Source: a virus (Duplodnaviria; Heunggongvirae; Uroviricota; Caudoviricetes). From it: a stretch of DNA of 44,178 nt. The position numbers and the translations under genes were made by a program. Below the pieces are notes generated by a model that saw only the letters and a list, made by a program, of their open reading frames with translations, was not told where the DNA came from and ran no database searches. The stretch is from the IMG/VR virus record IMGVR_UViG_3300045988_014135; one strand, 5' to 3'. Each line of letters begins with the position of its first letter. The stretch's first letter is position 1. This document shows positions 3,529 to 39,870 of this stretch, in pieces.

Positions 3529-3552
3529 AAGGCCCCTTACGGGGCCTTTTAT
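3529..3552. terminator. bidirectional intrinsic terminator (AAGGCCCC-TTAC-GGGGCCTT + T-run)
   Basis: 8-bp GC-rich stem, 4-nt loop, T-run on plus strand; between convergent genes 3003..3524 and 3552..4010. Confidence 0.7.
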
Positions 3553-4010
3553 CATTCTGGCTTAGTGACCTTCGCCGCTTTACTGACAGCCTCTACACCA
3601 TCGGCATCAGTAACTTTAACGAAGTATTCACCTGCTGCGTTAACCGTCAGAGACAAAGCCTCTTCCGGGACGTTTACCACTTCCTTCCCGTCTTTGTACC
3701 AGGTCAGCACATACGGCGCTTTGCCCGCCTTAACTTCGACGGTGATGGTGGCGCTACCGTCGACCAGCTCGGTGTCTTTCGGTTGCACAGAGAAATACAC
3801 ATCGCCAGCATCTGCCAGATACGGAATCTCATAAAGCATACCAGCAGCAGAGAGTGCGATACCGGTCTTGTCCGCATACGGCATCTCGTCTACAGGTGTA
3901 CCTAGTACACTTTCATCTTCAACGTAGGTTACGTTCTCACCAGAACCGGATACACGGGCGTACTGGACTACGCGACGCGACGGCACATCAGTTACTTTAA
4001 AAAAGCCCAT
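3552..4010 (-). CDS. Ig-like domain structural protein (possible head decoration)
   Basis: C-terminal pattern YVLTWYKDGKEV...EYFVKVTD resembles bacterial Ig-like domains; sits in the head module. Confidence 0.4.
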   Translation of the reverse strand: MGFFKVTDVPSRRVVQYARVSGSGENVTYVEDESVLGTPVDEMPYADKTGIALSAAGMLYEIPYLADAGDVYFSVQPKDTELVDGSATITVEVKAGKAPYVLTWYKDGKEVVNVPEEALSLTVNAAGEYFVKVTDADGVEAVSKAAKVTKPE

Positions 4011-4013
4011 AAA

Positions 4014-4637
4014 CTAAACCTCTTTCATTGAGTTAATCTTACGTAAGACGCCTTCGAAAAGGCGTGGGTCTATGCTATCGCAAAGGCCTTTGTATTCATA
4101 TGCTAATTCAATTTTTCTATGAAACCAGGCTACATGTGCCTCTTGAGCGGTTTCGTAAGCGCCTATTTGTTCAGATACACAATCCACGGATACTTGGGCG
4201 ATGAATCTTTTCTTTTGTTTATGAAAATGTACCCCAAGCGGGTGTTTGCCTCGAAGAGCGTCGTGGGCTGTGAGGAAAGTGTTAAGGGATTTGGGGATGA
4301 AAACACAGTTAGAAGCGTCATAAACCTTATTTCCTGGATTCAGTAAATCCTTATCTATCTGCCACCCAGGTACATAAAAATTATCAAACCAGACCTTGAA
4401 ATTACTGAACACCAACCAATCGTCCGACACGCGGCAGCCTATATAGGTTCTGTTTCTTTGCTGCCATTTCTTGTCGTAGCACCTCTTTAACATGTTCTTC
4501 CATCCGGCATAGGACGCTATATGCACCCCTCCGTGACTTATCGGTGAAACATCATTAATACCAACCCCAAAAACAATTCCCATATTAAATCCTATAAGAA
4601 AACCCCATGAAGATTGGTCGATGCCAGAGATAGGCAT
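4014..4637 (-). CDS. HNH homing endonuclease with AP2-like DNA-binding domain
   Basis: WKNMLKRCYD...YIGCRVSDDW...QIDKDLLNPGNKVYDASNCVFIPKSLN (HNH-type) and GVHFHKQKKRFIAQVSV...GAYETAQEAHVAW (AP2-like); free-standing between head genes; start uncertain. Confidence 0.55.
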   Translation of the reverse strand: MPISGIDQSSWGFLIGFNMGIVFGVGINDVSPISHGGVHIASYAGWKNMLKRCYDKKWQQRNRTYIGCRVSDDWLVFSNFKVWFDNFYVPGWQIDKDLLNPGNKVYDASNCVFIPKSLNTFLTAHDALRGKHPLGVHFHKQKKRFIAQVSVDCVSEQIGAYETAQEAHVAWFHRKIELAYEYKGLCDSIDPRLFEGVLRKINSMKEV

Positions 4638-4707
4638 ACCTTCATGGGGTTATATTCTTTCTCTATTTTTAGTAGTTCACCGACCAAAGCTAGCTACTAG
4701 GTATACT

Positions 4708-5751
4708 TTATACCGACCTAAGATACTCAGCAACCCTGTTGTCTAACTCCGCCATCTCCTTTAGGGTTAAAGGTCTACCAAAAGCGTCAACAGATATTAC
4801 CCGGAATTCCTCTGGTGATACCCCACTATTCCTGAATATCGCACCGCGGGTCGGCCCGAGTGCTTCGTCCACGAACCACGCCGGTTGTTGTTTCAGGAAC
4901 TCGTAGTAAGTGGTGTCTGCGCTTACCTGAGTACCTCCGTCCGCGCCCTTAGCCGCACGTTTTGCGCCTTTATCGAGGAAGTCGAACTCTGAACTGATTA
5001 CCGGGGCCGTGCACGACCGACAATTCGGATGGGCTGGGGGCATCGGCCCTTTACCAATTTCCCATGTCATTCCGTCTCTGGCTCTGCAAATCGTACTGGT
5101 ACGGCTATCCAGCGTTGATACCCATTCATATCTCTCAATGATGTCGTCGTTCTGTCGGTATGTCTCGTTACGGGCTTCGTTGGATACGTGGGACAGCGCA
5201 GTACGTATTACCGTAGCGGCGTTGCGTTCAGAGATGTCAGCCAGTCCACCTGCGCCTACGACATTCTTAACGATCTGCCGCGTGGTTTGGCCCTGAACAA
5301 AGCCCATCTTAACGCCTGTTACGAGACGTGCTACTTCCGTTTCACCCCAACCCGACATCAGCTTAGAGAAATCAACAGGCTTGTCGCTCAATGAGAGCGG
5401 TTGAAACTCGGCGGCGGCCCACACCTGTTCGGCGGTAGGCGTAACAAATTCAGCATTAACGTTGGTGGTAAGTGTCTTTACGTTCCACCCTGCTTCATAT
5501 GCCGCCAGCTCCTTAAGGTCTTCTGTCAGCTTTGTCTGCCAGTCACCTGTAAGCCCGGTCAGTGCTTCCTCAAGGTCGCGTAACAATTTATTCAGTCGCG
5601 CGGTGCTGCGACCGTCGTCGCCGAATAGCAACACCTGCCGTTTGATTTCGCCCCGCATTTCCTGAATGAACGGCGCGAGGTCTTTCACTTCACCGGATGC
5701 GGTGCGTTGCAGCCATATCTGGTGGCTGATTAGTGATGTAAGTAGTGGCAT
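4708..5751 (-). CDS. head morphogenesis protein (MuF / SPP1 gp7-like)
   Basis: 347 aa downstream of portal; conserved Cys-containing block YEWVSTLDSRTSTICRARDG typical of the family as recalled. Confidence 0.55.
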   Translation of the reverse strand: MPLLTSLISHQIWLQRTASGEVKDLAPFIQEMRGEIKRQVLLFGDDGRSTARLNKLLRDLEEALTGLTGDWQTKLTEDLKELAAYEAGWNVKTLTTNVNAEFVTPTAEQVWAAAEFQPLSLSDKPVDFSKLMSGWGETEVARLVTGVKMGFVQGQTTRQIVKNVVGAGGLADISERNAATVIRTALSHVSNEARNETYRQNDDIIERYEWVSTLDSRTSTICRARDGMTWEIGKGPMPPAHPNCRSCTAPVISSEFDFLDKGAKRAAKGADGGTQVSADTTYYEFLKQQPAWFVDEALGPTRGAIFRNSGVSPEEFRVISVDAFGRPLTLKEMAELDNRVAEYLRSV

Positions 5752-5838
5752 ATTTTATCGTCCCGATAAACAATTCGATTTAAAGGTGTCATGTATACGT
5801 ACGATACTACATTCGTTGATTAAACAGGAGGCTTAAAC

Positions 5839-6006
5839 ATGAACCACCATAAACTGATTACCGCTTTCATCAATAACGGTTGGACTGAGAAAGACGCTTT
5901 TGATGCAGCATACGCGTATAGAAACTGTGACTTGACGCTTGAAGGGGATTCTCAAGAGGATTATGACAAAGCAGTAAGAGAAGAAATGGGTTGCTGGGGG
6001 AGCTAA
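5839..6006 (+). CDS. small hypothetical protein (cassette gene)
   Basis: AGGAG RBS then ATG at 5839; 55 aa; own terminator at 6011; opposite orientation to flanking head genes. Confidence 0.4.
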   Translation: MNHHKLITAFINNGWTEKDAFDAAYAYRNCDLTLEGDSQEDYDKAVREEMGCWGS

Positions 6007-6010
6007 AACT

Positions 6011-6036
6011 AAGGCCCCATAACGGGGCCTTTTTAT
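6011..6036. terminator. bidirectional intrinsic terminator (AAGGCCCC-ATAAC-GGGGCCTT + T5)
   Basis: Hairpin plus T-run read directly; same hairpin family as 3529, 27414, 39844. Confidence 0.7.
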
Positions 6037-7506
6037 TTAATCCTGCTGCTGCGCCGCCTGCGGAATCTCTCCGGCTACCTGAGCAACAGCACCTAACGGC
6101 AGCGGCGCGTCCCCGATAGCATTCTTAATGTCCTCGTCTGTCCAGTCGGTTACACCCGCCTTGCGCAACGCAGCATAATAAGCAGTAGCGGGCAGCAAAC
6201 CTGCGTTAATATCAGCCATCCACTGAGCGCGGTCCTGGGCGGTCATCGGTTGCAGGAAGAACTCCATATTCAATTTAAACTCAACCTCTGTACCTTCACG
6301 CAACCCTAACATCGCAGCTACCCAGCGCAACGCATCTGTATACGCCATGCTTACATTACGTGCGATTGTCGCCATAACTGACGTATCCGCACCGCGTTGC
6401 AGTCTGGCCGATTCAGCGGTGATTTGCTGCGTCGGGGTGATAAGCTGCGCACCAATCTGGATGGCCTGATTCTCTTTATCCAGCATGTTCTGTTTGGCGA
6501 GGTTGTTCTCCCCCGCCTGAACCAGAAACGCATTGCCGCCGTGGCCGATGTTATGGCCCGAACGCGACCCCATACGCACGCCGTGGGGGTTGGCTTCTTT
6601 CCACTGTTCCATGCTCATATTCTCACCAGGGGCGATGAACAGAGTAGGCTGGCCAACAACGAAGCTGGACTCCTCATTGTCCGCGCTGTTGCGGAAATGC
6701 CCGATATTAAGCTCGGCCAACGGCAGCAAAGGGGCGTCGTCGATGGTCGCGTCATTGTTGCTTGCCCCAATAAAAGTGAACGGGATTTTGCCGCGTAACT
6801 GTTCGCCGAGTTCCGGGAATATTTCGATTACTTCATCCTGAGCGCCACCTTCGGCATCGAAGCGGTAAATGCGCTGGCGGTAGCGACCATCAATCAGGTC
6901 GAGAACGCGGTATTGTTCGCCGAACTTTGTTTCGAACTCTGCGCCCGGTTCTGAGTATTCCCATACCTCACGCAGCACGACCATTGTCACACGGTTAACT
7001 GAACCGACGCGGGTCAGTCGCCAGTTGATGATGTTCTCCGCGGTATAGAATGCGATGACCGGGTTTAGTAACCCTGCGTTCTGCTCGGCTGCCGTCGCTG
7101 CGGCTGTCTCCGGGGCGTCAACCAGCAACCCGCCACGTCCTACTGAGTCAATTTCCATCAGCGTGTCCTGGGCATGCTGCCACAGCCCGACACCAGAACC
7201 GTCGGCATTGCGTAACAGGTACTCCAGTTCACGAGGAATAATCTGCTCAGGGTCTTTTCTCATAACTGAGCCGACCATACCCGACAGGGTGCGCTTGGTG
7301 AAGTTGTAGCAGATAGCGCCGTTCTCGTATTCCTCCTGGCGTTGGGCGGCGTAAGTCGGGTCAGGCTCGTTCTTCCCGACGTTACGCAGGTAACGGATAA
7401 GGTCGCCTTCCAGCGCATGGCGCACCTTCTGCCATTTATCAAAGTGATGCAGCCATTCCCGGTGTTTTGTCTTAACACCTTGATTCTGACCGTTCATAGT
7501 TAACAT
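6037..7506 (-). CDS. portal protein (candidate)
   Basis: 489 aa ORF directly downstream of TerL; position and size. Confidence 0.6.
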   Translation of the reverse strand: MLTMNGQNQGVKTKHREWLHHFDKWQKVRHALEGDLIRYLRNVGKNEPDPTYAAQRQEEYENGAICYNFTKRTLSGMVGSVMRKDPEQIIPRELEYLLRNADGSGVGLWQHAQDTLMEIDSVGRGGLLVDAPETAAATAAEQNAGLLNPVIAFYTAENIINWRLTRVGSVNRVTMVVLREVWEYSEPGAEFETKFGEQYRVLDLIDGRYRQRIYRFDAEGGAQDEVIEIFPELGEQLRGKIPFTFIGASNNDATIDDAPLLPLAELNIGHFRNSADNEESSFVVGQPTLFIAPGENMSMEQWKEANPHGVRMGSRSGHNIGHGGNAFLVQAGENNLAKQNMLDKENQAIQIGAQLITPTQQITAESARLQRGADTSVMATIARNVSMAYTDALRWVAAMLGLREGTEVEFKLNMEFFLQPMTAQDRAQWMADINAGLLPATAYYAALRKAGVTDWTDEDIKNAIGDAPLPLGAVAQVAGEIPQAAQQQD

Positions 7507-7518
7507 TGAATAATCCTC

Positions 7519-8769
7519 TTAAAGTGCGAAAGTCACCGGGATGTTGATTACTGGTTTAACCACCGGCATCTCGTAAACTACAGGATAGCCCAGGGCATCT
7601 GCCATATGGTCGATGATGCCGTCTTTGGATGGCTCCCCGTTATCGTCATATGCCTGCTGCTCCAGCGTCTTCGCTATCTCAGGGCATAAGTGGTCGTTAA
7701 CCCACAGCTTACCTTTTTCCAGTGCGGTATTCACCGCTAAAACACGGTCTTTAACCGGCGGGTTGGCGGATTTAGCGCGAACATCGAACCCCGCCTGCTG
7801 TAGTAAGGCAATATCGGAGATTGACGCCGAGTTGGTTTTGCGGTTCTTGCCACTGGCGTCGGGGTAAACGACGATGCGGTGGCCTTGCGACTTCCACTTC
7901 TCGGTAATTACGCGCACGGTATCCGGCGTATCGAACAGGCCTTTCAGTTCTGCTACTGCATGCCAGCCGTCTTTACGTTGCACATACACGGCGCTGGCGT
8001 TCTTCGTAACGTTGAAGTCCTGCCCGATGTACAGCGTGTCGCCAGGTTGAATTGTCTCTTTGCTGCGGTGCTTACGGCGGTCGTATGCGTAATACACGCT
8101 GCCGGAGGTCAGGTTAACGAACTCACCGTTCAGATACGCGTTAATCAGTTGCGCGGGGTAAGTCTCTGTCAGCGAGCTGATGTAATCCGGCGGCAGGAAC
8201 CGCGCATTCTCGTGTGTGGAGGCCTGCACCATAGAGTAACTTGGCGTAGGATTCTCTTTGAACTTGGAGTAGACGAACTTGAACCCTTCCGGCGTTGTGG
8301 TGACGGAGATGTGGTTAATTACACCCGGGATAACCAGACGCATACGGGCTACGATTTTGTTCCACGCCAGTTCAGCTTTCTCGCGACTCAGTACGTCCAA
8401 CTCATCCACGACCGCCGCAGCGATTTTGAAACCAACTATCGAGCCGGGGTTATCCATCGAACGGCAGATAACCGTACCGAGCACCGTCTTACCGCGGGTA
8501 ACAACGACTTCTTTGTCGCCAGATTTAACCAGCACATCGAGGCCGAGAAGGTTAGCCGCTTCCTCGAATGTCGGGTAGAAGATGTCGCGGATGGCAGGAT
8601 ACGTCGGACCGAAGTAGCCAAGGCGCGTACCGGGGTGCTTGAGCATGAACGTAAGCAGGTCCAGACAGCCTACGAATGTCTTGCCGCTGCCGAAGCCCCC
8701 GACGTAGGCTTTGTATTTGTTATCGCAATTCAGGAACAGTGCCTGGGGCGCGGATAGCTGGATACTCAT
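7519..8769 (-). CDS. terminase large subunit
   Basis: Walker A YVGGFGSGKTF near N-terminus, acidic Walker B-like VVDELD; start overlaps TerS stop. Confidence 0.8.
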   Translation of the reverse strand: MSIQLSAPQALFLNCDNKYKAYVGGFGSGKTFVGCLDLLTFMLKHPGTRLGYFGPTYPAIRDIFYPTFEEAANLLGLDVLVKSGDKEVVVTRGKTVLGTVICRSMDNPGSIVGFKIAAAVVDELDVLSREKAELAWNKIVARMRLVIPGVINHISVTTTPEGFKFVYSKFKENPTPSYSMVQASTHENARFLPPDYISSLTETYPAQLINAYLNGEFVNLTSGSVYYAYDRRKHRSKETIQPGDTLYIGQDFNVTKNASAVYVQRKDGWHAVAELKGLFDTPDTVRVITEKWKSQGHRIVVYPDASGKNRKTNSASISDIALLQQAGFDVRAKSANPPVKDRVLAVNTALEKGKLWVNDHLCPEIAKTLEQQAYDDNGEPSKDGIIDHMADALGYPVVYEMPVVKPVINIPVTFAL

Positions 8770-9311
8770 TCCTCTACCTCGCCCATATTCGTTGTCACGA
8801 TTTTACCTACAGGCTCCGCGACACTGAAAATAATCTCAGTCGGTGCTGTTTCTTCGGTGGACTCAACAGGTTTCTCTTTGCTTAAGCCCAGCTTAGCCGC
8901 AGCAAACGTAGCGGAGATACCGGCGGCGCCTGTCTCAGTGAAATACGCCTCTTCCAGCGCCTGAGCGGTTTCATAGGCTTCTGCAAACGCCGGAATCTCA
9001 CGCAACCACAGCTTAATAATAGGGATAGTTACGCCGATGTGTAAGGCGAAGCGGGCCAGTGACGGGGGTTTATCCTGAATCAGCGGGCGTTCGTCACCCT
9101 TGGACGTAGGTACGAGTTCCCATGAGTTGCGGTCAAAGAACCGGATTAACTCGTCGCAATAGTCCGGGTCCCACAATGCCGCAGAATTACGGGATGACTG
9201 GTAAAGGCTCTGTTTACCCCGCGGTCGTTTACGGCGACGGTTGGCACTAACAGCCTCTTCATGTGCAGCTTGCACCACCTCAGGTGATGGTTGCTTAAGT
9301 GTAAGTTTCAT
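8766..9311 (-). CDS. terminase small subunit (candidate)
   Basis: Directly upstream of and overlapping TerL; basic N-terminal region; start set at ATG 9311 (MKLTLKQ...) preceded by a G-rich run; ORF track extends to 9350. Confidence 0.5.
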   Translation of the reverse strand: MKLTLKQPSPEVVQAAHEEAVSANRRRKRPRGKQSLYQSSRNSAALWDPDYCDELIRFFDRNSWELVPTSKGDERPLIQDKPPSLARFALHIGVTIPIIKLWLREIPAFAEAYETAQALEEAYFTETGAAGISATFAAAKLGLSKEKPVESTEETAPTEIIFSVAEPVGKIVTTNMGEVEE

Positions 9312-9328
9312 ATAACCCCCTGACATAT

Positions 9329-9370
9329 GCGTCTGACCATCAGAGCGCATCAGACGCGCCCTACGCGTCT
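9329..9370 (-). promoter_or_regulatory. structured leader: two mutually exclusive hairpins upstream of TerS
   Basis: Arms GCGTCTGA (9329-9336) / TCAGACGC (9350-9357); second palindrome AGACGCG-N5-CGCGTCT (9352-9370) shares an arm. Confidence 0.45.
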
Positions 9371-9376
9371 AAAGGG

Positions 9377-9405
9377 ATTATATAAGGGGATTGGGCTGGA
9401 TGTAC
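9377..9405 (-). promoter_or_regulatory. candidate late promoter (perfect TATAAT -10, weak -35)
   Basis: Minus-strand TATAAT at 9382-9377; -35 region GTACAT is poor, suggesting activator dependence. Confidence 0.3.
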
Positions 9406-9428
9406 AGAAAAGCCCTCCGTAGAGGGCT
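9403..9428 (-). terminator. intrinsic terminator ending the early operon
   Basis: Stem AGCCCTC/GAGGGCT, loop CGTA, followed on minus strand by UUUUCUGU. Confidence 0.55.
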
Positions 9429-9439
9429 TGATGGTTGGT

Positions 9440-9596
9440 TACCCGGTGATATCTCTGCCGTCTACCAGTGCTAACGGGATTCTCACTTCACCGTTGAATG
9501 TTTCGGCGTACCAGAACTTCTCACACTGCGTTACACTGAAAACATCGAGTTCTGACGTAGCGCCGGTTTTCCAGTAGACAGTTAACTTTTTCACTC
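9440..9596 (-). CDS. small hypothetical protein
   Basis: GTG start preceded by GGAGAGTGAGGA; 51 aa; last gene before terminator 9403..9428. Confidence 0.3.
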
Positions 9597-9827
9597 CTCA
9601 CTCTCCTCTTTAGCAATGCGTTGCTCAGTTTTAGTGATACCGCGGCGAGTGAATAACACCGGGCTTGTCTTAACATGCGTCATAAGACGGTTGTTATAAA
9701 TTACGTGACGCTCGCAGTTAACGTCTTTGCTGTACTTCGCAATCGTCATTTCGTTGATGCCAGTTTGTCGGCATGTCTCAGCCATCGTGCCATATTCTTT
9801 AATCAGGTTCGGAATGCTGGTAATCAT
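9591..9827 (-). CDS. small HTH-like protein (candidate regulator)
   Basis: MAETCRQTGINEMTIAKY has helix-turn-helix character; start at ATG 9827 overlapping upstream stop (ATGA). Confidence 0.35.
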   Translation of the reverse strand: MITSIPNLIKEYGTMAETCRQTGINEMTIAKYSKDVNCERHVIYNNRLMTHVKTSPVLFTRRGITKTEQRIAKEESEE

Positions 9828-9994: not shown

Positions 9995-10081
9995 TAATAT
10001 CTACCCCGCAGAAATCCAACCAATAACCCAATGAAGTAACTAAGACCGACCAGACCAATAACCACCTCAAGACTCATACTC

Positions 10082-11012: not shown

Positions 11013-11097
11013 TTCTCTCTACTCCGTTCTCGTTGTCGATGGAGTAAATATAATAGGGTCGAAGGTAATAGTCAACTAGTCATTGCGGAAAATAGAT

Positions 11098-12588: not shown

Positions 12589-12594
12589 GATGAA

Positions 12595-13330: not shown

Positions 13331-13332
13331 AA

Positions 13333-19225: not shown

Positions 19226-19253
19226 GTAAAAAGAAAGGGGCGTTAAGCCCCTT
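19226..19253 (-). terminator. intrinsic terminator after the XRE gene
   Basis: GGGG/CCCC stem with 7-nt loop, U-rich tail on minus strand. Confidence 0.55.
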
Positions 19254-27275: not shown

Positions 27276-27409
27276 ACGTCATAGCCCCGATCCCCGCATT
27301 GCAAAAACGTATCAAGGAACTCGAAGAAGAGGTTCTACGACTACGACAGCAAAGAGACGCCGCTAATGCGCAACTGGCGTTTGTACTGGAGAAGTTATCC
27401 GAAGATTAG
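27272..27409 (+). CDS. small coiled-coil protein
   Basis: 45 aa (LQKRIKELEEEVLRLRQQRD); last gene before terminator. Confidence 0.35.
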   Translation: MNVIAPIPALQKRIKELEEEVLRLRQQRDAANAQLAFVLEKLSED

Positions 27410-27440
27410 AGAAAAGGCCCCGATTGGGGCCTTAGTTTTA
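27409..27440. terminator. bidirectional intrinsic terminator (AAGGCCCC-GATT-GGGGCCTT)
   Basis: Between convergent replication and tail operons; T-rich on both sides. Confidence 0.7.
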
Positions 27441-29432
27441 TCCTAGTTTTGTATACGTCCAGTTAAATGTCGTCGTGCCCTGACTTGTTATCGCTACATC
27501 CCTTCCTGATGCAGAAAACGTTATGAATGCCCCCACTTTTAATGGCGTTAGAGTTAACGCACCATCATACATCGCTAGTTGGGTAGAAGAGTAGTTGGTT
27601 CCGCTATCCGAAGCCCATACACTAATGAGATACATCCCCTGCATATTTGGCAATGTAAACAATGTTGTTTGCGTACTGGCATTTACTAATTGCGTTCCTT
27701 TTGCGGTGTAGAAACCGGGGGTCTGTAGACCAGCGGATGATACTTGTTGGGTGTACCCACCAGATACAAGACCAGATATCGGGGTGCAGAACCAGTTAAC
27801 ATTACCCTGACTAACTACTGATATAACGGGGGTGCCACCTGCAGGCGCGCGCCAGCGTCCGCTGTACACGTCAATTCGGGATGTTGCGTCCTTAGCGTAT
27901 AACGTAACAGGGTATCCAGTTCCGATGTAAGTGATTGCGTTCTCCGACAAGTCATCCTCAGAAGAGTCGATTATAACCTGACTTGTTCCGGATGCCTTTA
28001 TGAAAGAAACGACACCACTTGCCGCGGGGGCTACAGTTTTCATCTGGTTTTGATGAGCTGTTAAGCCAGATATTTTGCCATTAGTGTTCTCAAAATGGAT
28101 AAGAGAACAATCGGAGCCGCCGTCTGTAGAAATGATATTTCCTTCAGCATCAAATCCCATGATGTTAACCGAGTGCGAGTTAACGAAATGCAAACCGGCA
28201 CTCCCGTAAGACCCTCCGGATACGCCTATCGCTGATTGGTCCATAGCGCAGTTGAGCATAGTTACAGACATGACGGCACCAAATTGATAAGGCGAGACGC
28301 ATCCGGATGCGTAGCAAGTCTCCATCAAAATTGTTGTTCCTAGTGTTTTAATAAAGCCATCATGACAATTTCGCGCCCATACGTTTTGTAACTTAGTAAG
28401 GTAAGTTCCGGTGGTGTCGGAGAAACAGCGCCATGCACCATGTACTGTGCAGTTTTTAATCTCAGACATTTCAAGACCAGTAGTACCGGCTTCAGTGGAG
28501 TAGAAATTAAATGCTATCTTCCCACTATTTCCGGTCGTGACGGTTGGCGTATCCCCCGGATTGTAGAATATATACAGTCCGTCGATGAACAGTTGAATCA
28601 TTTTCGTCCCACCGGAAGAGCTGCCCTGAGCGAGCGCGAAAAGGGATATATCTCCGTCAACGGATATAAACGACTGGGCACGGTTGATGCCGTCGGTGTT
28701 CTCGCCGACGATTCTGACGCTATTATTGAAATAGATGGTGGAGTTAACGAAGCCCGTTCCTTTTGGGATTAGCACTGTCTTTTTGGAGTTGCATGCGGCC
28801 TGTATGGCAGCGTAATCAGTCGACTGGGTAAGACTCGTAACAAAGGGGTATACCATCTGGGCTGCTGTAAGAGTAGAGAATTTCTCGCTTAGTGGGTGGA
28901 TGTCACCATCCCATGTAGCGCCGAAGTCATAAATACTTACAGCATCACTTACCTTGCTATGTAGGGTTCTCCCAACGGCTCCGGCCAGTACAGATTTAAC
29001 CCCGACCATGGCGTCGCCTAGTTGCACATCGTCCGTGTTTGCTAAATCATCGCGTAGATATGGGTCGGTCTGCGGCTTCCAGTTAGCGTTACCGACCGGG
29101 TTAAACGATGCAGGGACAACAACCGGAAGCGTACCCGCGTATGAGTACCACGTTTTACTCACCGGGTCATAAACAATTTTGTCACGGTCATTAACAGTTA
29201 GCGTGCCGCCGGTAGAAAAGTCCCACGATACGGGAGAAAAACCAGCGTCACGCAGTACCGCCGGGAGGGTCTTCTGCGTCTGGCCTGTAACAGCATTGGT
29301 CGCGTAATCAATATCTGCACCACCAGCAACCCCGCCTGCTTTACCGGTGATAACCTCGATTTCGAAAATCTGGTGTTTACGTGCGATTTGCATCGACTCC
29401 AGACTTACAACATCACCACATCCGCTTGACAT
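27438..29432 (-). CDS. tail fibre / tailspike (receptor-binding protein candidate)
   Basis: 664 aa, last gene of tail operon; Gly/Ser/Thr/Asn-rich with repeated short beta-strand-like segments. Confidence 0.5.
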   Translation of the reverse strand: MSSGCGDVVSLESMQIARKHQIFEIEVITGKAGGVAGGADIDYATNAVTGQTQKTLPAVLRDAGFSPVSWDFSTGGTLTVNDRDKIVYDPVSKTWYSYAGTLPVVVPASFNPVGNANWKPQTDPYLRDDLANTDDVQLGDAMVGVKSVLAGAVGRTLHSKVSDAVSIYDFGATWDGDIHPLSEKFSTLTAAQMVYPFVTSLTQSTDYAAIQAACNSKKTVLIPKGTGFVNSTIYFNNSVRIVGENTDGINRAQSFISVDGDISLFALAQGSSSGGTKMIQLFIDGLYIFYNPGDTPTVTTGNSGKIAFNFYSTEAGTTGLEMSEIKNCTVHGAWRCFSDTTGTYLTKLQNVWARNCHDGFIKTLGTTILMETCYASGCVSPYQFGAVMSVTMLNCAMDQSAIGVSGGSYGSAGLHFVNSHSVNIMGFDAEGNIISTDGGSDCSLIHFENTNGKISGLTAHQNQMKTVAPAASGVVSFIKASGTSQVIIDSSEDDLSENAITYIGTGYPVTLYAKDATSRIDVYSGRWRAPAGGTPVISVVSQGNVNWFCTPISGLVSGGYTQQVSSAGLQTPGFYTAKGTQLVNASTQTTLFTLPNMQGMYLISVWASDSGTNYSSTQLAMYDGALTLTPLKVGAFITFSASGRDVAITSQGTTTFNWTYTKLG

Positions 29433-32868: not shown

Positions 32869-32871
32869 AAA

Positions 32872-33963
32872 TTAACCGTCCACATTAAAATCAATACGAG
32901 TGATATATTTACTGCCCCACGCAGAATCCGCTTGGGGGATAGTCGCGTAACCGTCAACAGCCTGAACGTTTACCACAGAGCTGTCGGAGTATGTAATGTC
33001 GATGCTTGTTGCGCCGTTCATTGCTACTTTTGCCGATGCCGCTTGGCGGCCCACAGCAGACGAATCTGTGATTATTGGCGACGTGGCAAATGGTTTTTTT
33101 TCAACCTGAGCGGACGCAACTGAAAAAGAAGATGCTCCATCCGATGCGTAAGACGTGAGTCTGGTAGACGTCATAGACGGTATGCTTGCTACCGCTATGG
33201 AGGATAGTGCAGAACCGTCCCCTGTCGCGATTGTGGTAGTTGAGCATAGAACCCGCCCAGTGCCTAACCCGCCTATCTGGTAGTTAATAGAACCGCCTTC
33301 TGGCGGAACACGCCCAACGGCAACACCATCAATAAATGTTAGAGGCCATTCATTAGTGGCTGATTGCACAAGATTGCCGTTGCGGTTGATGTAATAAACC
33401 TGCGGCCCGTCGTACACAATGCGGCTATCCAGGGCGGACGCCAGAAGGTTAATCGGCGGGTATCCTGCGGGCCCTTCATCGCTCCAGATGCGCGGGAACG
33501 TAGTCTCATAGTTCGCGTATATTTTCAGGAAACTACCCAGACAATCCCCGTAGCAACCATACAAATCTGGCAGATTCTTAGTAAGACATGTGTCTTCCTG
33601 AATTGCTGTGCGCTCTGCTGTAGCCGTAAACGTAATGACCCAGTTCTTGCCGTCGTCTGTGCTATCGCTAATATCAGACGTAATAAGAACCTGGTGGTCT
33701 TCGATACCTAAACCCGTATCGTGCGGCATGATAAATGAAGACGCACCGCCGTCTATGTTGTTCAGGAAGCTATAGAACGCCTGGCGACCGAGCGATGATA
33801 CGACCAGGGTAACGCTAATCGGCACCGGTTCGAAGTATGTATCACGCCCCTGACGAGGCACACCGCCCTGAACTTCTGTACGCCAGATATTACTCCCTCG
33901 CGTTTGGGAGTACCCCTTCGACACTATTGGTCGAAGGGACATAGGGAATCTCAAATCACTCAT
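32872..33963 (-). CDS. minor tail protein (distal tail candidate)
   Basis: 363 aa immediately downstream of tape measure; by position. Confidence 0.4.
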   Translation of the reverse strand: MSDLRFPMSLRPIVSKGYSQTRGSNIWRTEVQGGVPRQGRDTYFEPVPISVTLVVSSLGRQAFYSFLNNIDGGASSFIMPHDTGLGIEDHQVLITSDISDSTDDGKNWVITFTATAERTAIQEDTCLTKNLPDLYGCYGDCLGSFLKIYANYETTFPRIWSDEGPAGYPPINLLASALDSRIVYDGPQVYYINRNGNLVQSATNEWPLTFIDGVAVGRVPPEGGSINYQIGGLGTGRVLCSTTTIATGDGSALSSIAVASIPSMTSTRLTSYASDGASSFSVASAQVEKKPFATSPIITDSSAVGRQAASAKVAMNGATSIDITYSDSSVVNVQAVDGYATIPQADSAWGSKYITRIDFNVDG

Positions 33964-33966
33964 TGG

Positions 33967-36303
33967 TTAATACCCCGGCTGGTTTCGTGTAGCCCGGCGG
34001 GACTTGGAGATTGCACTGTTGCTGTCTTGTAACGCCGCCGATACTGTTTCACTGATGATAACACGTAACCGCCCTTCGTCGTCACGCTCTGTAACGGCGG
34101 AATCAACTCGTCCGGTGGTGTTGTTGACGATTGTCACGCTGTCACCGCCTGACTTGTTGCCGTTCTCGCCCATAATCTGGCGCATCTGTTCTGCGGTACG
34201 GACGCGTGACGCACCTGCCGGCATAATAACTTCGGGCTTGTTACGTTCTGCAATGGTGGATAGCTGCCCGGCAGCTAAGTTACCACCCTGTTCACGGGCC
34301 GAACGAATCTTGCTGATGTTAGCGAGACCTGCCGCTACCGCTGTAGCTGCTGCTATCGGCCCAAGTATCCAACCAACAAAAGGAATCGCGGACGCAGATT
34401 TATAAGCCTCGATGGCGGATGTGTATGTGGCGATGGTGGCCTGGGCGATAGCAAACGCTTTATAAGCGGTAGACGCTTCGCCAAGCGACGATTTAATATT
34501 ATCCGCCATCATTCCGAAAGCGTTACCGGTAGCGTTGGCACGTTTCAAAGCATACTGGTCGTTTATAGCATTAACCGCAGCCTGGTACTGCTCCTCGTTA
34601 ATAAGGTTCTGTTCGCGATATCGGTCTGCAACGTCAAGTTTTTGTTGTTCCTGAATCTCCAAAAGCTCAAGCTCTGCGGCATTCTGACCCATAATCTGAG
34701 CCATGAAGTCTTCACCTTTCTGGTTCTTCTTCTGTCGTTCTTTCTTCCGCTTGGCGAGTTCTTCCTGGCGAGCGGTGTCCGCCTCCAACATAATCTGAGT
34801 TTTAGCGTTCTCGTATTGCTGGTCGCTAAGAAGCTGATTGCCGTAAAACTCCTGTAGCTTGGTTAGCTGCTGTTCCTGGTTGGCTTCTATTTTCTGGAAT
34901 ACGTCATCATTGAGATGAATCGACTGGTAGTAGAAATCCTCAGCGGCTTTCTTCTGGCGCTTGAACGCATCTGCGGCTTTCTTAGCGGCTTTTGCACCTG
35001 CGCTATCATCTTCGGATCCGCCACCAGTACCGGTTACCTTAAATTTACTAAGACCTTCTTCCTTAGCGGCTTCTTTGTCGATGTCATATGCCGCGCGTTT
35101 AAGCGCGACGATATTTTGCTGAGCCTCCACCTGTTCGCGGAAACTTTTACGGGTCAGGTCCGCAACATCGCGCTGAGTATCCAGTGCCATCCCTAGCTGG
35201 AAGTTAATGTTTTTTGCTACGTCTACAGATTCCCCTGGTGTGAAGGCAGCTTTCACCAACCGGCCAGCGTCCTGTGCCCCTTTAACCATATCTTCAAAGA
35301 AGCGCTCCATCGCGGTAAATTCTTCTGCGATGAAATCGAGCGCATCGGCAGCTGATTCCGCGATGGTTGTCGCCGTTTGTTCGCCGCTGTCGGTGATACT
35401 TTTACTGCTAAAATCCCAAAGTTCATTCAGCCCGTTTATTGCGTCGCCTACGAAACCAAATGCCGCGTCGAACGACATCTCTATCGCGCTGCCCACTTCT
35501 GACGCGATGTCACCCCACATACGCATCTCAGCGGTGAGTTCGCCGGATGCTACCTGTGCGTTAAGTTCCTGGATTAAATCATCGATGTACCGGATAGGTT
35601 CCGCAAGAGCACCAACATCAAGGCTGGTGGCCAGTGTCATTTTTAACTGCGACCATGAGTCGCTGGCACTGGCGATGGCCCCGTTAAGTGTGTTGGCCTG
35701 GTCCGCCATAGCCCCCGCGAAGTTTACGTTACCAATGTTGAGCAGGTATTGCTCGATGTCGGCAGCGCTCTTCTTAACTACCGTAGTGGTGCCCTGGAAT
35801 GTAAATTCAACATCGTTTTTGTTCTGCTTGGCCTTGATACCAAATTCTTTAAGGCGCTCAAATTCAAATGTACTAGCGTCCGCAACGGCCTCAATCATCT
35901 GATTAAGGTCTTTACCCATAGCAGCGGCAGTGTTGCCATAGGAGCGCAACGCTTCTTCTGAGGGGGTAAGGCCGAGAGCCACCAGTTTACGGAATCCCTC
36001 TACCGCCTGTTCAAGGCCATACGGAGTGTCGCGCGCGAAGTCTTGCAGGATGCTTAACGCCTGTCTTGCCCCCTGCGTGCTTCCGGTTAGCGTTTTCAGG
36101 CTGGCGGACATCTTGTCCAGTTGCCGTTGGGAGTCTACCAGTTCCTGTGCGGCCTTGTACGCGGTCGCGGCGACAATTGAAGCGAGTCCAGCTACGGCTG
36201 CCCCCGCTACTTTTGCCGACTTGGAGAGATTATCAAGACGGTCCGATGTAGCTTTCGCGCCTTGCTCTGATACCTTTACAACTAAACTAGCTACATCAGC
36301 CAT
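33967..36303 (-). CDS. tail tape measure protein
   Basis: 778 aa, Ala/Gln/Glu-rich helical protein following the chaperone genes. Confidence 0.8.
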   Translation of the reverse strand: MADVASLVVKVSEQGAKATSDRLDNLSKSAKVAGAAVAGLASIVAATAYKAAQELVDSQRQLDKMSASLKTLTGSTQGARQALSILQDFARDTPYGLEQAVEGFRKLVALGLTPSEEALRSYGNTAAAMGKDLNQMIEAVADASTFEFERLKEFGIKAKQNKNDVEFTFQGTTTVVKKSAADIEQYLLNIGNVNFAGAMADQANTLNGAIASASDSWSQLKMTLATSLDVGALAEPIRYIDDLIQELNAQVASGELTAEMRMWGDIASEVGSAIEMSFDAAFGFVGDAINGLNELWDFSSKSITDSGEQTATTIAESAADALDFIAEEFTAMERFFEDMVKGAQDAGRLVKAAFTPGESVDVAKNINFQLGMALDTQRDVADLTRKSFREQVEAQQNIVALKRAAYDIDKEAAKEEGLSKFKVTGTGGGSEDDSAGAKAAKKAADAFKRQKKAAEDFYYQSIHLNDDVFQKIEANQEQQLTKLQEFYGNQLLSDQQYENAKTQIMLEADTARQEELAKRKKERQKKNQKGEDFMAQIMGQNAAELELLEIQEQQKLDVADRYREQNLINEEQYQAAVNAINDQYALKRANATGNAFGMMADNIKSSLGEASTAYKAFAIAQATIATYTSAIEAYKSASAIPFVGWILGPIAAATAVAAGLANISKIRSAREQGGNLAAGQLSTIAERNKPEVIMPAGASRVRTAEQMRQIMGENGNKSGGDSVTIVNNTTGRVDSAVTERDDEGRLRVIISETVSAALQDSNSAISKSRRATRNQPGY

Positions 36304-36655
36304 CGTTTCTACCCTCGAAAATAGCGTCTAAGCTCATGATGATGTCAGATTCGAACATGCCTATATTCTGGCCTGAAACGGTGCTGTATGCCACTAAATC
36401 CGACCATCTTAACTGTTCGCGCGGGTACATCTTGATGCCATCATCGTCCACTCGGCGGGTGAATTTGATTTCCCTGTACTTCTCGAAGGTGGTTAATAGC
36501 TCAGGGGGGCATTCCGGCCCTGTGTCCGGCGTTGCTTCCGGCGCGTCTTGCATAACCCCCATAGCAATTAGCGCGGCTTTATGCCCGTCGGCGATACTGT
36601 CAAACTCCCGCCGTTTGTGGCGGGTTATGAAGTTCCAACGGGCAAACTGGAGCAA
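36296..36655 (-). CDS. tail assembly chaperone, T-like frame
   Basis: -1 frame relative to the G-like gene, open across the G stop; TTG-initiated as drawn, more likely a frameshift extension. Confidence 0.4.
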   Translation of the reverse strand: MLQFARWNFITRHKRREFDSIADGHKAALIAMGVMQDAPEATPDTGPECPPELLTTFEKYREIKFTRRVDDDGIKMYPREQLRWSDLVAYSTVSGQNIGMFESDIIMSLDAIFEGRNDG

Positions 36656-36660
36656 CGCGT

Positions 36661-37077
36661 CTACTTTTCCTGCAATTGGTGAAGCTGTTCATTGTGGAAA
36701 ACAACAACGTGTTCAGCGAGTCGTTTATATTGTGAGAAAAGAGTATTCAGGTTCTCTTTATTAAATTCATCGTCGAGACTCCAACCGTTAACCAGTTCAA
36801 GCGCTAACTGGCGGTTAAGGTCCGTTGCGGCGTCTTCCATCTTGATGTTGTATTCCGAGAAATCTTTCAGTTCCTCGCATTTATCGCGAAGCGGTTTCAA
36901 TTTACCTAATGCCGCGCGGTACGCAAGTGTAAACGCCCTCATAGCTTTAACAGCAACGTCTGCCTCCGGTGAAACAACGTTCAGCCACTCCCCTGAATCG
37001 GTGCCGTCTTTCAGTGGTATCGGCATACGGGCGCCTTTTTCTGCCTCAGCTTCGTAATAAAAATCAGAAAGTTTCAT
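36661..37077 (-). CDS. tail assembly chaperone (G-like)
   Basis: 138-aa acidic protein between major tail and tape measure genes. Confidence 0.55.
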   Translation of the reverse strand: MKLSDFYYEAEAEKGARMPIPLKDGTDSGEWLNVVSPEADVAVKAMRAFTLAYRAALGKLKPLRDKCEELKDFSEYNIKMEDAATDLNRQLALELVNGWSLDDEFNKENLNTLFSQYKRLAEHVVVFHNEQLHQLQEK

Positions 37078-37185
37078 TCTTTAATCCTTTGGTTAAGAGG
37101 TTACAGGTTAATGGTAAATGCGCCAGACGGGAACCACCCGCTTTTCGTGTGCGACACTAGGCGCAAAATTATTCTATCACATTAC

Positions 37186-37214
37186 TTGCGCACCCCAACA
37201 TAATAGGATACTAT
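37186..37214 (+). promoter_or_regulatory. promoter TTGCGC-N17-TACTAT with dyad AATAGGATACTATT
   Basis: -35 37186-37191, -10 37209-37214; dyad 37202..37215; near-identical to early promoter 15906..15934. Confidence 0.65.
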
Positions 37215-37255
37215 TCACTTACACCAACAATGTTAACTCAAACAGGAGCTACACC

Positions 37256-37447
37256 ATGACAGGTATTACTATGTTCTTCTTAATCATTATCGTTTTAGTT
37301 TATTTTATCCCGTTTTTAGTGGCCCATATGCGCGGACATAAAGCGAAACTGGCGATATTCATGGCTAATCTGTTTCTCGGCTGGGTTCTGCTGCCGTGGG
37401 TATTTATTTTAATCTGGGCTTGCAACTCGAATGTCAAAGAGAAGTGA
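37256..37447 (+). CDS. superinfection-immunity-like small membrane protein
   Basis: 63 aa, two TM helices; YFIPFLVAHMRGHKAK...NLFLGWVLLPWVFILIWA resembles the Imm_superinfect family pattern as recalled; start at ATG 37256 after AGGAG. Confidence 0.5.
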   Translation: MTGITMFFLIIIVLVYFIPFLVAHMRGHKAKLAIFMANLFLGWVLLPWVFILIWACNSNVKEK

Positions 37448-37485
37448 GCTAGTATAGGACAAATCCTAAACACGAGGAAGTAAGC

Positions 37486-38616
37486 ATGGCCCGGAAGAAA
37501 ATAACCGACGAACAGTTACAGGAAGAATTGAACGCCGGAACAAAGATTATCGACATATCCCGTAAATACGGCATCTCAGACCGAGTTATTCGTATCCGTA
37601 AAGCGAAGCTGGCGAAGAAAGGCGTAGGTCACGGTCGTGACGTTAGCCATCTTGTCCCGGACGGCTACAAAATTAAAGGAACGTCGTCACTGGTGGACGA
37701 GTTCGGCAACACTAAGTTGCAATGGGTTAAGACAGACACCGACGCCGAACGTCAGGTCGAGTTAATGAAAGCCGTGATCGAAGGAATGAAGTCGGAGATT
37801 ACGCCAGTTGCGCCGGTTAAAGCGACTCGAGCCAAACGCGACGATAAACTACTCAATCTGTACACGGTATCTGATTTCCATCTTGGTATGCTGGCCTGGG
37901 CTGACGAGAGCGGCGACGACTGGGATATGAAGATTGCGGAAGACCTGTTCTCCCGATGGTTCGATGCGGCGTTTCAGAAAGCACCAGATGCAGGAACTGG
38001 GGTTATTAACCTGCTGGGTGACTTCGCGCACTTCGATAGTCTGGATGCGGTTACGCCAGCGAGTGGTCATGTTCTTGATGCGGACACTCGTTATCAGAAA
38101 CTGGTCCGCTACATGATTCGTATGGTACGCCGTGTTGTTGACATGGCGCTGGTTAAGCATAAATCTGTTCGCTTGCTTATCGTGCAAGGGAACCACGACG
38201 AAAGCGGAATGATTTGGTTAGCTGAGATGTTTAGTACGCTGTACGACAATGAGCCGCGTGTGTTCGTCGATACGTCGCCGGATGTTTACAAGATGGTCCA
38301 ACACGGCAAAACTACGCTGTTCTTTCACCACGGGCATAAGGCGCGATTCGACGCTATCGAACCGGTAATGATTGCCAAGTTCCGTAAAGCGTTCGGCGAG
38401 AGTGTTTACAGCTACGCCCACGTAGGCCATCTGCACCACCAGAAGATTGTAGAAAGCCGTAACATGATTGTTGAGCAACACCGCACCTTAGCGGCTAAAG
38501 ACGCCTACGCCTCGCGCGGCGGATGGATGTCGGGCCGTAGTGCAAATGTAATTACTTATAGCGCCGAATATGGCGAGGTCGCACGTTTAACTATTTCACC
38601 GGAGATGCTGGGATGA
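37486..38616 (+). CDS. calcineurin-like metallophosphoesterase with N-terminal HTH-like domain
   Basis: Motifs DFHLG, GDFAHFD, GNHDE, HHGH, GHLHH; basic N-terminal segment ISRKYGISDRVIRIRKAKL looks HTH-like. Confidence 0.6.
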   Translation: MARKKITDEQLQEELNAGTKIIDISRKYGISDRVIRIRKAKLAKKGVGHGRDVSHLVPDGYKIKGTSSLVDEFGNTKLQWVKTDTDAERQVELMKAVIEGMKSEITPVAPVKATRAKRDDKLLNLYTVSDFHLGMLAWADESGDDWDMKIAEDLFSRWFDAAFQKAPDAGTGVINLLGDFAHFDSLDAVTPASGHVLDADTRYQKLVRYMIRMVRRVVDMALVKHKSVRLLIVQGNHDESGMIWLAEMFSTLYDNEPRVFVDTSPDVYKMVQHGKTTLFFHHGHKARFDAIEPVMIAKFRKAFGESVYSYAHVGHLHHQKIVESRNMIVEQHRTLAAKDAYASRGGWMSGRSANVITYSAEYGEVARLTISPEMLG

Positions 38617-39101
38617 AAGATATTGTGATTTTCGATTTAGACGGGACATTGGCGGATGGTACTCATCGTTTACACCTGCTGCCGAAAGATAACTACGGCG
38701 AAACCTGGGCGTGGAAGCCTTTTAACATGGCCTGCAAAGATGACGCGCCCATTAAAGATAACATCCACTTGTGCAACACGCTGTGGCATACCGGGATGAC
38801 CATAATCATCCTTACCGGGCGAAGCGACGACGCCGAGGAAGAAACTCGTGAGTGGTTACGTAAAAACAATGTCAAGTTCGACGTTCTGTTAATGCGCAGC
38901 AAGCACGACAACAGAAAAGACATCGTAATTAAAGAAGAGGTGTTACGTGCTATCGGGCTGGAGAGAATATTGTGTGCGTTCGACGACTCTCCAGCGGTAA
39001 TAAAGCATTTCCGCGGACTCGGTATAACCACTCACGCGGTTACTGAATACGACTGTAACGGGAACTCTACACACTTAAAATCACACGGGAGCGATAAATA
39101 A
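38613..39101 (+). CDS. HAD-family phosphatase resembling the T4 Pnk 3'-phosphatase domain
   Basis: VIFDLDGTLA nucleophile motif; IIILTGRSDD and RKDIVIKEEV parallel T4 Pnk VIFDVDGTLA / VVVSGRESG / RKDDVVKEEI as recalled. Confidence 0.55.
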   Translation: MKDIVIFDLDGTLADGTHRLHLLPKDNYGETWAWKPFNMACKDDAPIKDNIHLCNTLWHTGMTIIILTGRSDDAEEETREWLRKNNVKFDVLLMRSKHDNRKDIVIKEEVLRAIGLERILCAFDDSPAVIKHFRGLGITTHAVTEYDCNGNSTHLKSHGSDK

Positions 39102-39670
39102 TGGCTAAGGTAATTATTCTTAATGGCCCTGCGGGCTGCGGGAAAGACACACTTGCTATGGCGCTGGTAGAAATGGGCTTTGCGAAAGGAACTACCAGTT
39201 TCAAGAATCCAATGTTCAATATTGCTCGGGCAGCGTTAGGCCCGGATGCTTACCACGAATTTCTCGACGGCTACGACGACCGGGCACGGAAAGAAAAGCC
39301 AGAATGTTTCCTTAATGGGTTGTCGCGACGTCAGTTCATGATTGCTATCTCGGAGCAATTCATTAAGCCTGTACTTGGCAATGATTATTTCGGTAAGTAT
39401 CTCGCTGAAAACTTGCCTGACGGCGACGAAGTTTTTGTAGTGTCCGACGGTGGGTTTGCCAGTGAAGTTGCCCCTATCGTCGCCGCTGGGCATGACGTGC
39501 GAATCGTCCGCTTGCACCGAGACGGCTACACGTTTGACGGGGATAGCCGTGGCTACCTGTACGATATTGATGGGGTAGTATGCCATGACGTCGCCATCAT
39601 TCCTGGTGAGATTACATTAACCGCGGCCACGGTTGCCAATAGAATCCTGGGGATTTACCCAAATGCGTGA
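39101..39670 (+). CDS. P-loop kinase (dNMP-kinase-like; could be a polynucleotide 5'-kinase)
   Basis: Walker A LNGPAGCGKDT (GKDT as in T4 gp1 dNMP kinase as recalled); further blocks align loosely with T4 gp1. Confidence 0.5.
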   Translation: MAKVIILNGPAGCGKDTLAMALVEMGFAKGTTSFKNPMFNIARAALGPDAYHEFLDGYDDRARKEKPECFLNGLSRRQFMIAISEQFIKPVLGNDYFGKYLAENLPDGDEVFVVSDGGFASEVAPIVAAGHDVRIVRLHRDGYTFDGDSRGYLYDIDGVVCHDVAIIPGEITLTAATVANRILGIYPNA

Positions 39671-39839
39671 AGGCACAATGGGGACAATATACGTTATCCG
39701 CGTATATGACGAAGAATGGGATGAGTGGGTTGATATTTACGCCGTAGGTAGCAAGGAAGAGGCGACAAAAGAGATGACAGAACGGAGTGACAGAGGTCAG
39801 TTAACTAACTTCTACGAAATGCCATTCAAAAGTGAGTGA
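39663..39839 (+). CDS. small hypothetical protein
   Basis: 58 aa from ATG 39663 overlapping kinase stop; last cassette gene. Confidence 0.35.
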   Translation: MREGTMGTIYVIRVYDEEWDEWVDIYAVGSKEEATKEMTERSDRGQLTNFYEMPFKSE

Positions 39840-39870
39840 GAAAAAGGCCCCGAAAGGGGCCTTAGTTTTA
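39840..39870. terminator. bidirectional intrinsic terminator (AAGGCCCC-GAAA-GGGGCCTT)
   Basis: Between the plus-strand cassette and the convergent major tail gene. Confidence 0.7.

Follow-up and report, generated by a model that had tools for sequence, protein, structure and literature searches.

A recurrent hairpin as probable two-way terminator and 3′ boundary of accessory gene cassettes in phages of the Guernseyvirinae

Morons of lambdoid and other tailed phages, reportedly described by Juhala et al. 2000 and Hendrix et al. 2000, are among the closest known counterparts of the gene cassettes considered here. The stretch of viral DNA that we analyzed in full (IMG/VR record IMGVR_UViG_3300045988_014135, 44,178 bp, hereafter the window) carries plus-strand cassettes that, judged by their layout, match the moron definition. 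They consist of one to a few genes with a predicted factor-independent terminator and, for most cassettes, a putative promoter module of their own, they are inserted between genes that are adjacent in relatives, their presence or absence is polymorphic, and the functions of their genes are often unknown or related to host interaction. At the 3′ ends of these cassettes the same hairpin is found again and again, and this hairpin is the subject of the present work. In contrast to morons, the cassettes of the window belong to a virulent phage and are oriented antisense to the late structural operons that surround them. Moreover, their terminator appears to be bidirectional, and unrelated open reading frames (ORFs) share one standard promoter module and one hairpin in a few fixed slots.

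The second system that invites comparison is the promoter-early stem-loop (PeSL) cassette of T4-type myoviruses, in which short repeated sequences, made up of an early-type promoter and a GC stem-loop terminator, lie on either side of variable ORFs without known function. PeSLs bound insertions, deletions, and replacements between close relatives, and they were proposed to be points of homologous exchange between otherwise unrelated sequences (PMC2839356, PMC4122927). The window is similar in that repeated motifs, namely four copies of the hairpin and seven copies of a promoter core, bound insertions, deletions, and replacements. However, a PeSL is one composite motif of ~50-60 nt which occurs in co-directional tandem arrays and hyperplastic regions, whereas here the promoter and the hairpin lie at opposite cassette ends, the hairpin is placed at a convergent junction where it would serve both strands, and the genome is that of a 44-kb siphovirus. 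As promoter and stem-loop do not form one composite motif, strict PeSL membership was ruled out. Instead, we consider it probable that the four hairpins are copies of a standard bidirectional Rho-independent (intrinsic) terminator of the Guernseyvirinae, which at the same time forms the fixed 3′ end of moron-type cassettes.

By megablast, the whole window was assigned to Kagunavirus (Guernseyvirinae), a genus of virulent E. coli siphophages, and it represents a complete siphophage genome. In mosaic pieces, it is ~88-94% identical to phages such as vB_EcoS-K1_SXAU_B4, NTEC3, and fFiEco03, while hundreds of Salmonella Jerseyvirus records are its remoter kin. The pattern AAGGCCCC-N(3-7)-GGGGCCTT matched the window exactly four times and was absent from 100 dinucleotide-preserving shuffles; the relaxed core GGCCCC..GGGGCC returned the same four matches and no others. 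In every copy, eight base pairs, six of them GC, form a perfect stem closed by a loop of 4-5 nt. As the initial annotation had noticed, near-identical stems are combined with different loops; all four loops differ (TTAC, ATAAC, GATT, and GAAA), and no homogenization of loops within the genome was seen.

The first hairpin, AAGGCCCC-TTAC-GGGGCCTT at 3529-3548, separates the plus-strand ORF c173 (stop at 3524) from a minus-strand Hoc-like gene (stop at 3552) and forms the 3′ end of the cassette at junction J1. The second, AAGGCCCC-ATAAC-GGGGCCTT at 6011-6031, does the same for the cassette at junction J2, between c55 (plus strand, stop at 6006) and the portal gene (minus strand, stop at 6037). 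The third, AAGGCCCC-GATT-GGGGCCTT at 27414-27433, lies between orf45 (plus strand, stop at 27409), with which the replication operon ends, and the tailspike gene (minus strand, stop at 27438). The fourth, AAGGCCCC-GAAA-GGGGCCTT at 39844-39863, lies between o68 (plus strand, stop at 39839), the end of a further accessory cassette, and the major tail protein gene (minus strand, stop at 39868). The observation that the hairpins sit where plus- and minus-strand transcription converge was thus borne out at all four sites, each hairpin nearly filling a stop-to-stop gap of 28-30 nt with 3-5 nt left on each side. Furthermore, TAA-AACT-AAGGCCCC is always present on one side, meaning that a stop codon is fused to the module at all four sites. 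This fused TAA is the stop of the plus-strand ORF at sites 1 and 2 and the stop of the minus-strand gene at sites 3 and 4.

When all perfect hairpins of the window were surveyed, approximately nine others proved to be terminator-like (among them those at 167, 2652, 9410, 11333, 14608, 16007, 19235, and 43623). Their stems are unrelated, which argues that the four hairpins are a real family and not generic GC hairpins, and which rules out that all terminators of this genome simply look alike. One of them, AAGGGGC-GTTAA-GCCCCTT at 19235-19253, is located at a fifth convergent junction, where the helicase-primase gene ends opposite a small minus-strand ORF. These data also bear on a purely convergent origin, in which each junction would have evolved a GC palindrome with AA/TT ends independently, with neither shared descent nor mobility. 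Such a stem would have a functional reason, as its AAGG...CCTT ends lengthen the U-run on both strands, and it is used at convergent junctions only, the unidirectional terminators being different. However, the fifth convergent junction has a different stem, and the TAA-AACT spacer, which is not part of the stem, is shared by all four sites and by more than 100 relatives. Considering also the behavior of the cassettes reported below, we regard independent origins as very unlikely.

Bidirectional intrinsic terminators are known from convergent gene pairs of bacteria, where genome-wide 3′-end mapping in E. coli revealed them. The hairpins described here resemble these terminators in having a palindromic GC stem between an A-tract and a T-tract, with convergent stop codons around it, so that both transcripts would end in a hairpin followed by a U-run, less clearly so on the minus strand of sites 3 and 4. 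They differ in that one near-invariant sequence is present in four copies per genome, occurs subfamily-wide, and moves with gene cassettes. The stem has a predicted stability of approximately -15.4 kcal/mol (hairpin alone) on either strand, and the eight folds (four sites, two strands) gave z-scores of -2.8 to -5.0 compared with shuffles. T-rich tails flank the stems on both sides. In a consensus scan, both strands of sites 1 and 2 were rated as terminator-like, but only the plus strand of sites 3 and 4. The GenBank record of fBC-Eco01 carries ARNold terminators on both strands at the homologous hairpins. These features suggest termination in both directions, for sites 3 and 4 less clearly so. 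Transcripts of either strand would form one and the same GC-rich 8-bp stem with a U-rich stretch behind it. In this way, plus-strand (early/accessory) transcription would be kept from continuing as antisense RNA into the minus-strand structural genes, and vice versa.

Stable GC stems directly behind stop codons on both strands, frequently with GNRA-type loops (GAAA, GTAA), might also act mainly as stabilizers or processing signals of RNA 3′ ends, shielding the short cassette mRNAs and the late mRNAs from exonucleases. For stabilization alone, however, the U-rich tracts after the stems would be needless, and the placement of a hairpin at every junction with potential antisense read-through fits termination. 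Although the two roles are compatible, it appears highly improbable to us that protection of the RNA is the principal one.

The hairpin is not a peculiarity of the window, as the same sequence was found at the same four junctions in ~150 related genomes. Scanning IMG/VR for the extended motif yielded at least 117 loci, and among the matches listed, to which the following counts of contexts and flanks also refer, 108 of 117 are relatives of the window (tblastx). Almost all contexts bearing the motif belong to the same four junction types, and at every site one flank is conserved and the other hypervariable. Expressed as clusters of 40-nt flanks, the variable and conserved sides comprise 12 and 2 clusters at site 1, 6 and 4 at site 2, and 13 and 4 at site 4. 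The strongest asymmetry is seen at site 3, with 25 clusters on the variable side (tailspike 3′ ends; 29 contexts) and a single one on the conserved side. For a sample independent of the motif, 69 loci were collected around the portal and 23 around the large tail protein. Here, the exact hairpin was present at site 4 in 18 of 19 loci and at site 3 in all 11 Kagunavirus-like loci, and it was seen at site 3 in Jerseyvirus-like loci too.

In bacteria and archaea, the extended motif had only four matches in 185,579 species genomes (one genome per species), and three of the four are on Guernseyvirinae-like contaminant scaffolds. This near-absence marks the hairpin as an element of the phage family and not a host terminator; a derivation from the host was therefore ruled out, and the same result speaks against convergent evolution of the extended module. 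The three scaffolds, all of them short, Taishania pollutisoli CZZ-1 scaffolds 23 and 22 (L211, L212) and Micromonospora chalcea DSM 43026 Cont184 (L213), are 68-96% identical to the phage family and most likely represent phage contamination rather than prophages.

The relationship between hairpin and cassette becomes apparent from the comparison of empty and occupied junctions. J1 denotes the Hoc-like gene/spanin junction (site 1 of the window) and J2 the portal/head-morphogenesis junction (site 2). At J2, the gap measures 69 nt in NTEC3 and ~25 IMG/VR relatives, in which the junction is empty, versus 285 nt in the window, and at J1 the corresponding values are ~341 nt and 924 nt. Occupied junctions contain a plus-sense insert which ends in TAAAACT-AAGGCCCC-loop-GGGGCCTT, whereas empty junctions carry another hairpin, AAAGCCCC-TTTC-GGGGCT. 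The exact hairpin or its 7-bp form was present at 37 of 53 occupied J1/J2 junctions and at none of the 52 empty ones, which suggests that the hairpin arrives with the cassette and is difficult to reconcile with independent evolution at each junction. As is the case for morons, the cassettes sit between genes that are adjacent in related phages. The initial annotation had proposed that three of the four sites bound accessory cassettes and that a comparison with relatives lacking them would be informative. Both proposals held: the three are plus-strand cassettes within minus-strand structural operons and polymorphic in their presence, and the remaining site bounds the hypervariable 3′ end of the tailspike gene. 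In addition, hybrid hairpins exist that combine the left arm AAAGCCCC with the right arm GGGGCCTT, and so do compensatory stem variants (AAAGCCCC/GGGGCTTT).

The contents of these junctions are highly diverse. J1 and J2 are occupied by at least 20 plausible ORF families, and phages with portal proteins of at least 95% identity have more than 10 different J2 contents. Four ORF families, namely c173, a 94-aa ORF, a 57-aa ORF, and a methyltransferase-like ORF, occupy either J1 or J2, depending on the phage. For instance, c173 occupies J1 in the window, Snoke, Schulenburg, fFiEco02, and others, and the portal/head-morphogenesis junction J2 in Shashou, Sciku, fBC-Eco01, phage 26, and locus L143. 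In the J1/J2 pairs of each family, DNA homology starts ~25 nt upstream of the promoter core, runs to the last base of the hairpin, and then stops; such continuous homology between copies in different slots is not expected from convergence. A metallophosphoesterase of the site-4 cassette was found at J1 in another lineage (85% amino-acid identity), again ending at the hairpin, which brings the slot-switching families to five.

The J1 cassette matched 119 phage records, of which ~95 cover less than 80% of the cassette, and the listed partial matches comprise only the ~77-nt promoter module (~90% identity), which precedes methyltransferase genes in Salmonella phages. The c55 cassette is missing from NTEC3 and most relatives; of 399 phage records, only 4 have a full-length copy at J2. 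The complete unit, which extends from the first intergenic base through the 5′ region and the 55-aa ORF to the terminator, recurs in Salmonella phage SeSz-2 of the unrelated siphovirus genus Skatevirus (L216, 2500-2790). There, it is flanked by the tape measure gene on one side and a tail gene on the other, and it ends with the compensatory hairpin AAAGCCCC-TTTC-GGGGCTTT. Many independent transfers in which the hairpin moved as a single block with its neighboring ORF and the promoter module would contradict convergence, and this is largely what is seen already. With regards to the suggestion that the cassettes were acquired or spread by a common mechanism, a common mode of spread is indeed supported by hairpins that occur only with cassettes, by unrelated ORFs with shared ends, and by the same ORFs in different slots.

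The 5′ ends of the cassettes are similarly standardized. A module of the form ...AAATA(G/T)TTTGCA-N8-ATAATAGGGTACTATTCA-(G)TTAACTTAAACAGGAG-ATG is shared by 33 J1/J2 cassettes, and most cassettes begin with a promoter-operator module of ~65 nt, finish with TAA-AACT-hairpin, and enclose unrelated ORFs, with ~0.2-2.6 kb separating module and hairpin. Across 487 pairs of cassettes with unrelated ORFs, the 18-nt core is 97% identical and the 30 nt preceding it are 75% identical; the 5′ untranslated region reaches 65%, and the first 60 nt of the ORF reach 31%, as expected at random. In the window, the promoter/operator/ribosome binding site (RBS) module of the J1 cassette spans 2933-3002 on the plus strand with the core ATAATAGGGTACTATTCA at 2961-2978, within TTGCGC-N17-TACTAT. 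The module of the site-4 cassette spans 37177-37217 (plus strand) with the core ATAATAGGATACTATTCA at 37200-37217. Allowing up to 3 mismatches, the core has seven copies in the window, all at the heads of transcription units (2961 and 37200 on the plus strand; 14328, 15903, 19487, 19531, and 21650 on the minus strand).

An operator-like palindrome, AATAG-N4-CTATT within ATAATAGGNTACTATTCA, is part of all seven copies, and its placement with respect to the -35/-10 elements follows one of two patterns. Class A probably reads TTGC[A/G]C-N17-TACTAT and class B TTGACA-N17-TATAGT, and the palindrome overlaps the TTGC(A/G)C-N17-TACTAT element. An alternative assignment of TATAAT inside the core as the -10 element appears less likely, as the two class patterns are more consistent over the seven copies. 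In fBC-Eco01, the same repeat is listed as PHIRE “phage promoter” with the consensus tgAATAGTa-ccTATTat-T (PMC9825357). Position and PHIRE-type annotation together suggest that the module is a promoter, and the AATAG-N4-CTATT motif is probably bound by a phage regulator.

A cassette would accordingly be built from the promoter module, an RBS, one or several ORFs, TAA-AACT, and the hairpin as fixed 3′ end. Since promoter module and hairpin are near-identical across cassettes with unrelated genes, they can act as short arms of homology. The ORF could then be replaced, or the whole unit moved, by recombination between slots or between phages that infect the same cell, with crossovers presumably falling within the promoter module and the hairpin. 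The permissive junctions would be Hoc-like/spanin, portal/head-morphogenesis, major-tail/tail-assembly, and the tailspike 3′ end.

Small inversions associated with hairpins, in which the loop flip-flops, are known from non-coding chloroplast DNA. The phage hairpins show a comparable behavior: their stems are essentially invariant, their loops are variable, and loops at a given site form reverse-complement pairs. At site 4, the six loop types are exactly three pairs (GAAA/TTTC, GGAA/TTCC, and AAAC/GTTT), an outcome which was obtained in 0 of 200,000 simulations with six random tetraloops. Site 3 has the pairs AAAC/GTTT and GAAA/TTTC, site 1 has five pairs, and flips occur on several different cassette backgrounds (loci L002-L210). 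As in chloroplasts, close relatives differ in the orientation of the loop but share the same perfect inverted repeat as stem. In the present case, the repeats are putative phage terminators, and because both strands are transcribed, flipping the loop should be functionally neutral. The pairs point to an inversion of the loop at the DNA level or to conversion between inverted copies.

This finding raises the question of whether the hairpin is primarily a DNA recombination site similar to integron attC, recognized as a cruciform by a structure-specific enzyme or used in template switching, with termination being secondary. Stems that are invariant at the nucleotide level with loops free to vary would fit, as would the flipping of DNA implied by the loop pairs, the crossovers within the hairpin implied by its hybrid forms, and cassette homology that ends at the last base of the stem. 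However, the left cassette end is the promoter module and not a hairpin, the compensatory variants AAAGCCCC/GGGGCTTT fit selection on structure instead of on a recognition sequence, and a terminator would require just such T-rich tails on both sides. Moreover, the 72 genes of NTEC3, which is 88-90% identical to the window, include no annotated integrase or recombinase, and none is reported for fBC-Eco01 (PMC9825357). An actual integron attC cassette was ruled out, given that NTEC3 has no annotated integrase and that the hairpin is a perfect, short 8-bp palindrome and not a long imperfect one with extrahelical bases. Overall, we consider a primary role in recombination unlikely. A bolder idea is that the palindrome itself drives cassette capture, a hairpin, cruciform, or template switch during replication flipping the loop and joining foreign ORFs to the resident terminator. 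We regard this as doubtful, but if true, virulent siphoviruses would possess four standard slots into which genes can be plugged as in an integron, yet independently of a recombinase.

Returning to the terminator as a standard cassette boundary, which we favor, several observations weigh against it. For bidirectionality, the stable stem on both strands, the T-rich tails, and the annotation on both strands in fBC-Eco01 uphold what had been claimed initially, whereas the minus-strand side is weaker at sites 3 and 4. The tails there have only 4 T in 8 positions (UUCUCUAA and UUUCUCAC) after the terminal UU of the stem, so that bidirectionality may be asymmetric. The hairpins at sites 3 and 4 also belong to the fixed core of the whole subfamily and are not recent acquisitions. 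As the sampled loci are phylogenetically related, Fisher p-values such as that for the hairpin at occupied versus empty junctions (p=6e-16) overstate independence. The end of homology at the hairpin is partly forced by the stop codon of the next essential gene, which is only 3-5 nt away, and is therefore no proof of crossovers inside the hairpin. Finally, the promoter module is a poor sigma-70 match that was not called by a promoter scan, and the J2 cassette of the window is devoid of the promoter core and has a different upstream region (5752-5838).

Regarding gene content, the J1 ORF c173 (3003-3524, plus strand) is annotated in relatives as sliding-clamp-like or RusA-like. Its database labels conflict, with phrog_3007 “RusA-like resolvase” (E 3.7e-35) on one side and “DNA polymerase III sliding clamp” in GenBank on the other, and it has no Pfam match. 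The J2 cassette (5752-6006, plus strand) comprises its own 5′ region and the 55-aa ORF c55 (5839-6006, phrog_35937). The accessory cassette at site 4 (37256-39839, plus strand), whose content varies among relatives, encodes an Imm-like superinfection-immunity protein (PF14373), a metallophosphoesterase/DNA-repair-exonuclease-like protein (37486-38616), a stand-alone PNKP phosphatase domain (PF25109, 38613-39101), a separate P-loop kinase (39101-39670), and o68. The PNKP phosphatase and the P-loop kinase look like a split polynucleotide kinase-phosphatase, and the island could possibly be a counter-defense module for RNA or tRNA repair.

The conserved flanks of sites 1, 2, and 4 are the genes for the Hoc-like head decoration protein (3552-4010), the portal (6037-7506), and the major tail protein (39868-41040), all on the minus strand. 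At site 3, the minus-strand tailspike gene (27438-29432) has its stop codon fused to the module (TAA-AACT-hairpin), and its variable receptor-binding part is predicted to lie between the conserved N-terminal region and the terminator. The overall layout was read off the annotated NTEC3 genome. A long block on the minus strand, which holds the genes for structure and lysis as well as early genes, is followed by a plus-strand replication operon (~16.2-27.4 kb), a minus-strand tail block, the plus-strand accessory island (37.2-39.8 kb), and further tail and neck genes on the minus strand. The window contains no tRNA, and Rfam gave no match at the gathering threshold, which led us to reject a known RNA family or a tRNA-related element as an explanation of the hairpins.

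Two further features are located near J1. Between the head-morphogenesis and Hoc-like genes, an HNH homing-endonuclease gene (4014-4637, minus strand; phrog_953, E 3e-77) is present, which is missing from NTEC3 and found in some relatives only. It is not bounded by hairpins and represents a separate kind of mobile insertion. On the other side, a conserved stretch of ~300 nt (2628-2932) separates the spanin gene from the J1 cassette and constitutes a small transcription unit. It includes a terminator on the minus strand only (GCCCCGC...GCGGGGC, 2652-2671) and a 36-aa minus-strand ORF (2722-2832), whose copy in NTEC3 differs by two amino acids.

Parts of this picture have been described before. 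Individual hairpins are annotated as predicted terminators in some GenBank records, the promoter repeat is listed as a PHIRE motif, and the underlying principle of morons and of shuffling via regulatory cassettes is already established. In the literature on Jerseyvirinae, Guernseyvirinae, and Kagunavirus, we found only per-genome lists of terminators and PHIRE promoters and no prior account of the hairpin family. The family-wide reuse of one hairpin, its travel together with cassettes, the movement from slot to slot, and the flipping of loops thus appear to be undescribed.

If our reading is correct, it provides a testable picture of how Guernseyvirinae, which include therapeutic-candidate phages of E. 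coli and Salmonella, swap accessory genes and tailspikes. The exchange would be confined to a small number of fixed slots. Each of these would have one standard two-way terminator as its boundary, to which most cassettes add one standard promoter-operator module. For annotation, it implies that small plus-strand ORFs within structural operons are likely real, independently transcribed units, and the positions of mosaic breakpoints would become predictable. The slots could serve as natural landing pads, and promoter module and hairpin as natural parts, for phage engineering. Lastly, the PeSL/moron concept would be extended from T4-type and lambdoid phages to a subfamily of virulent siphoviruses.

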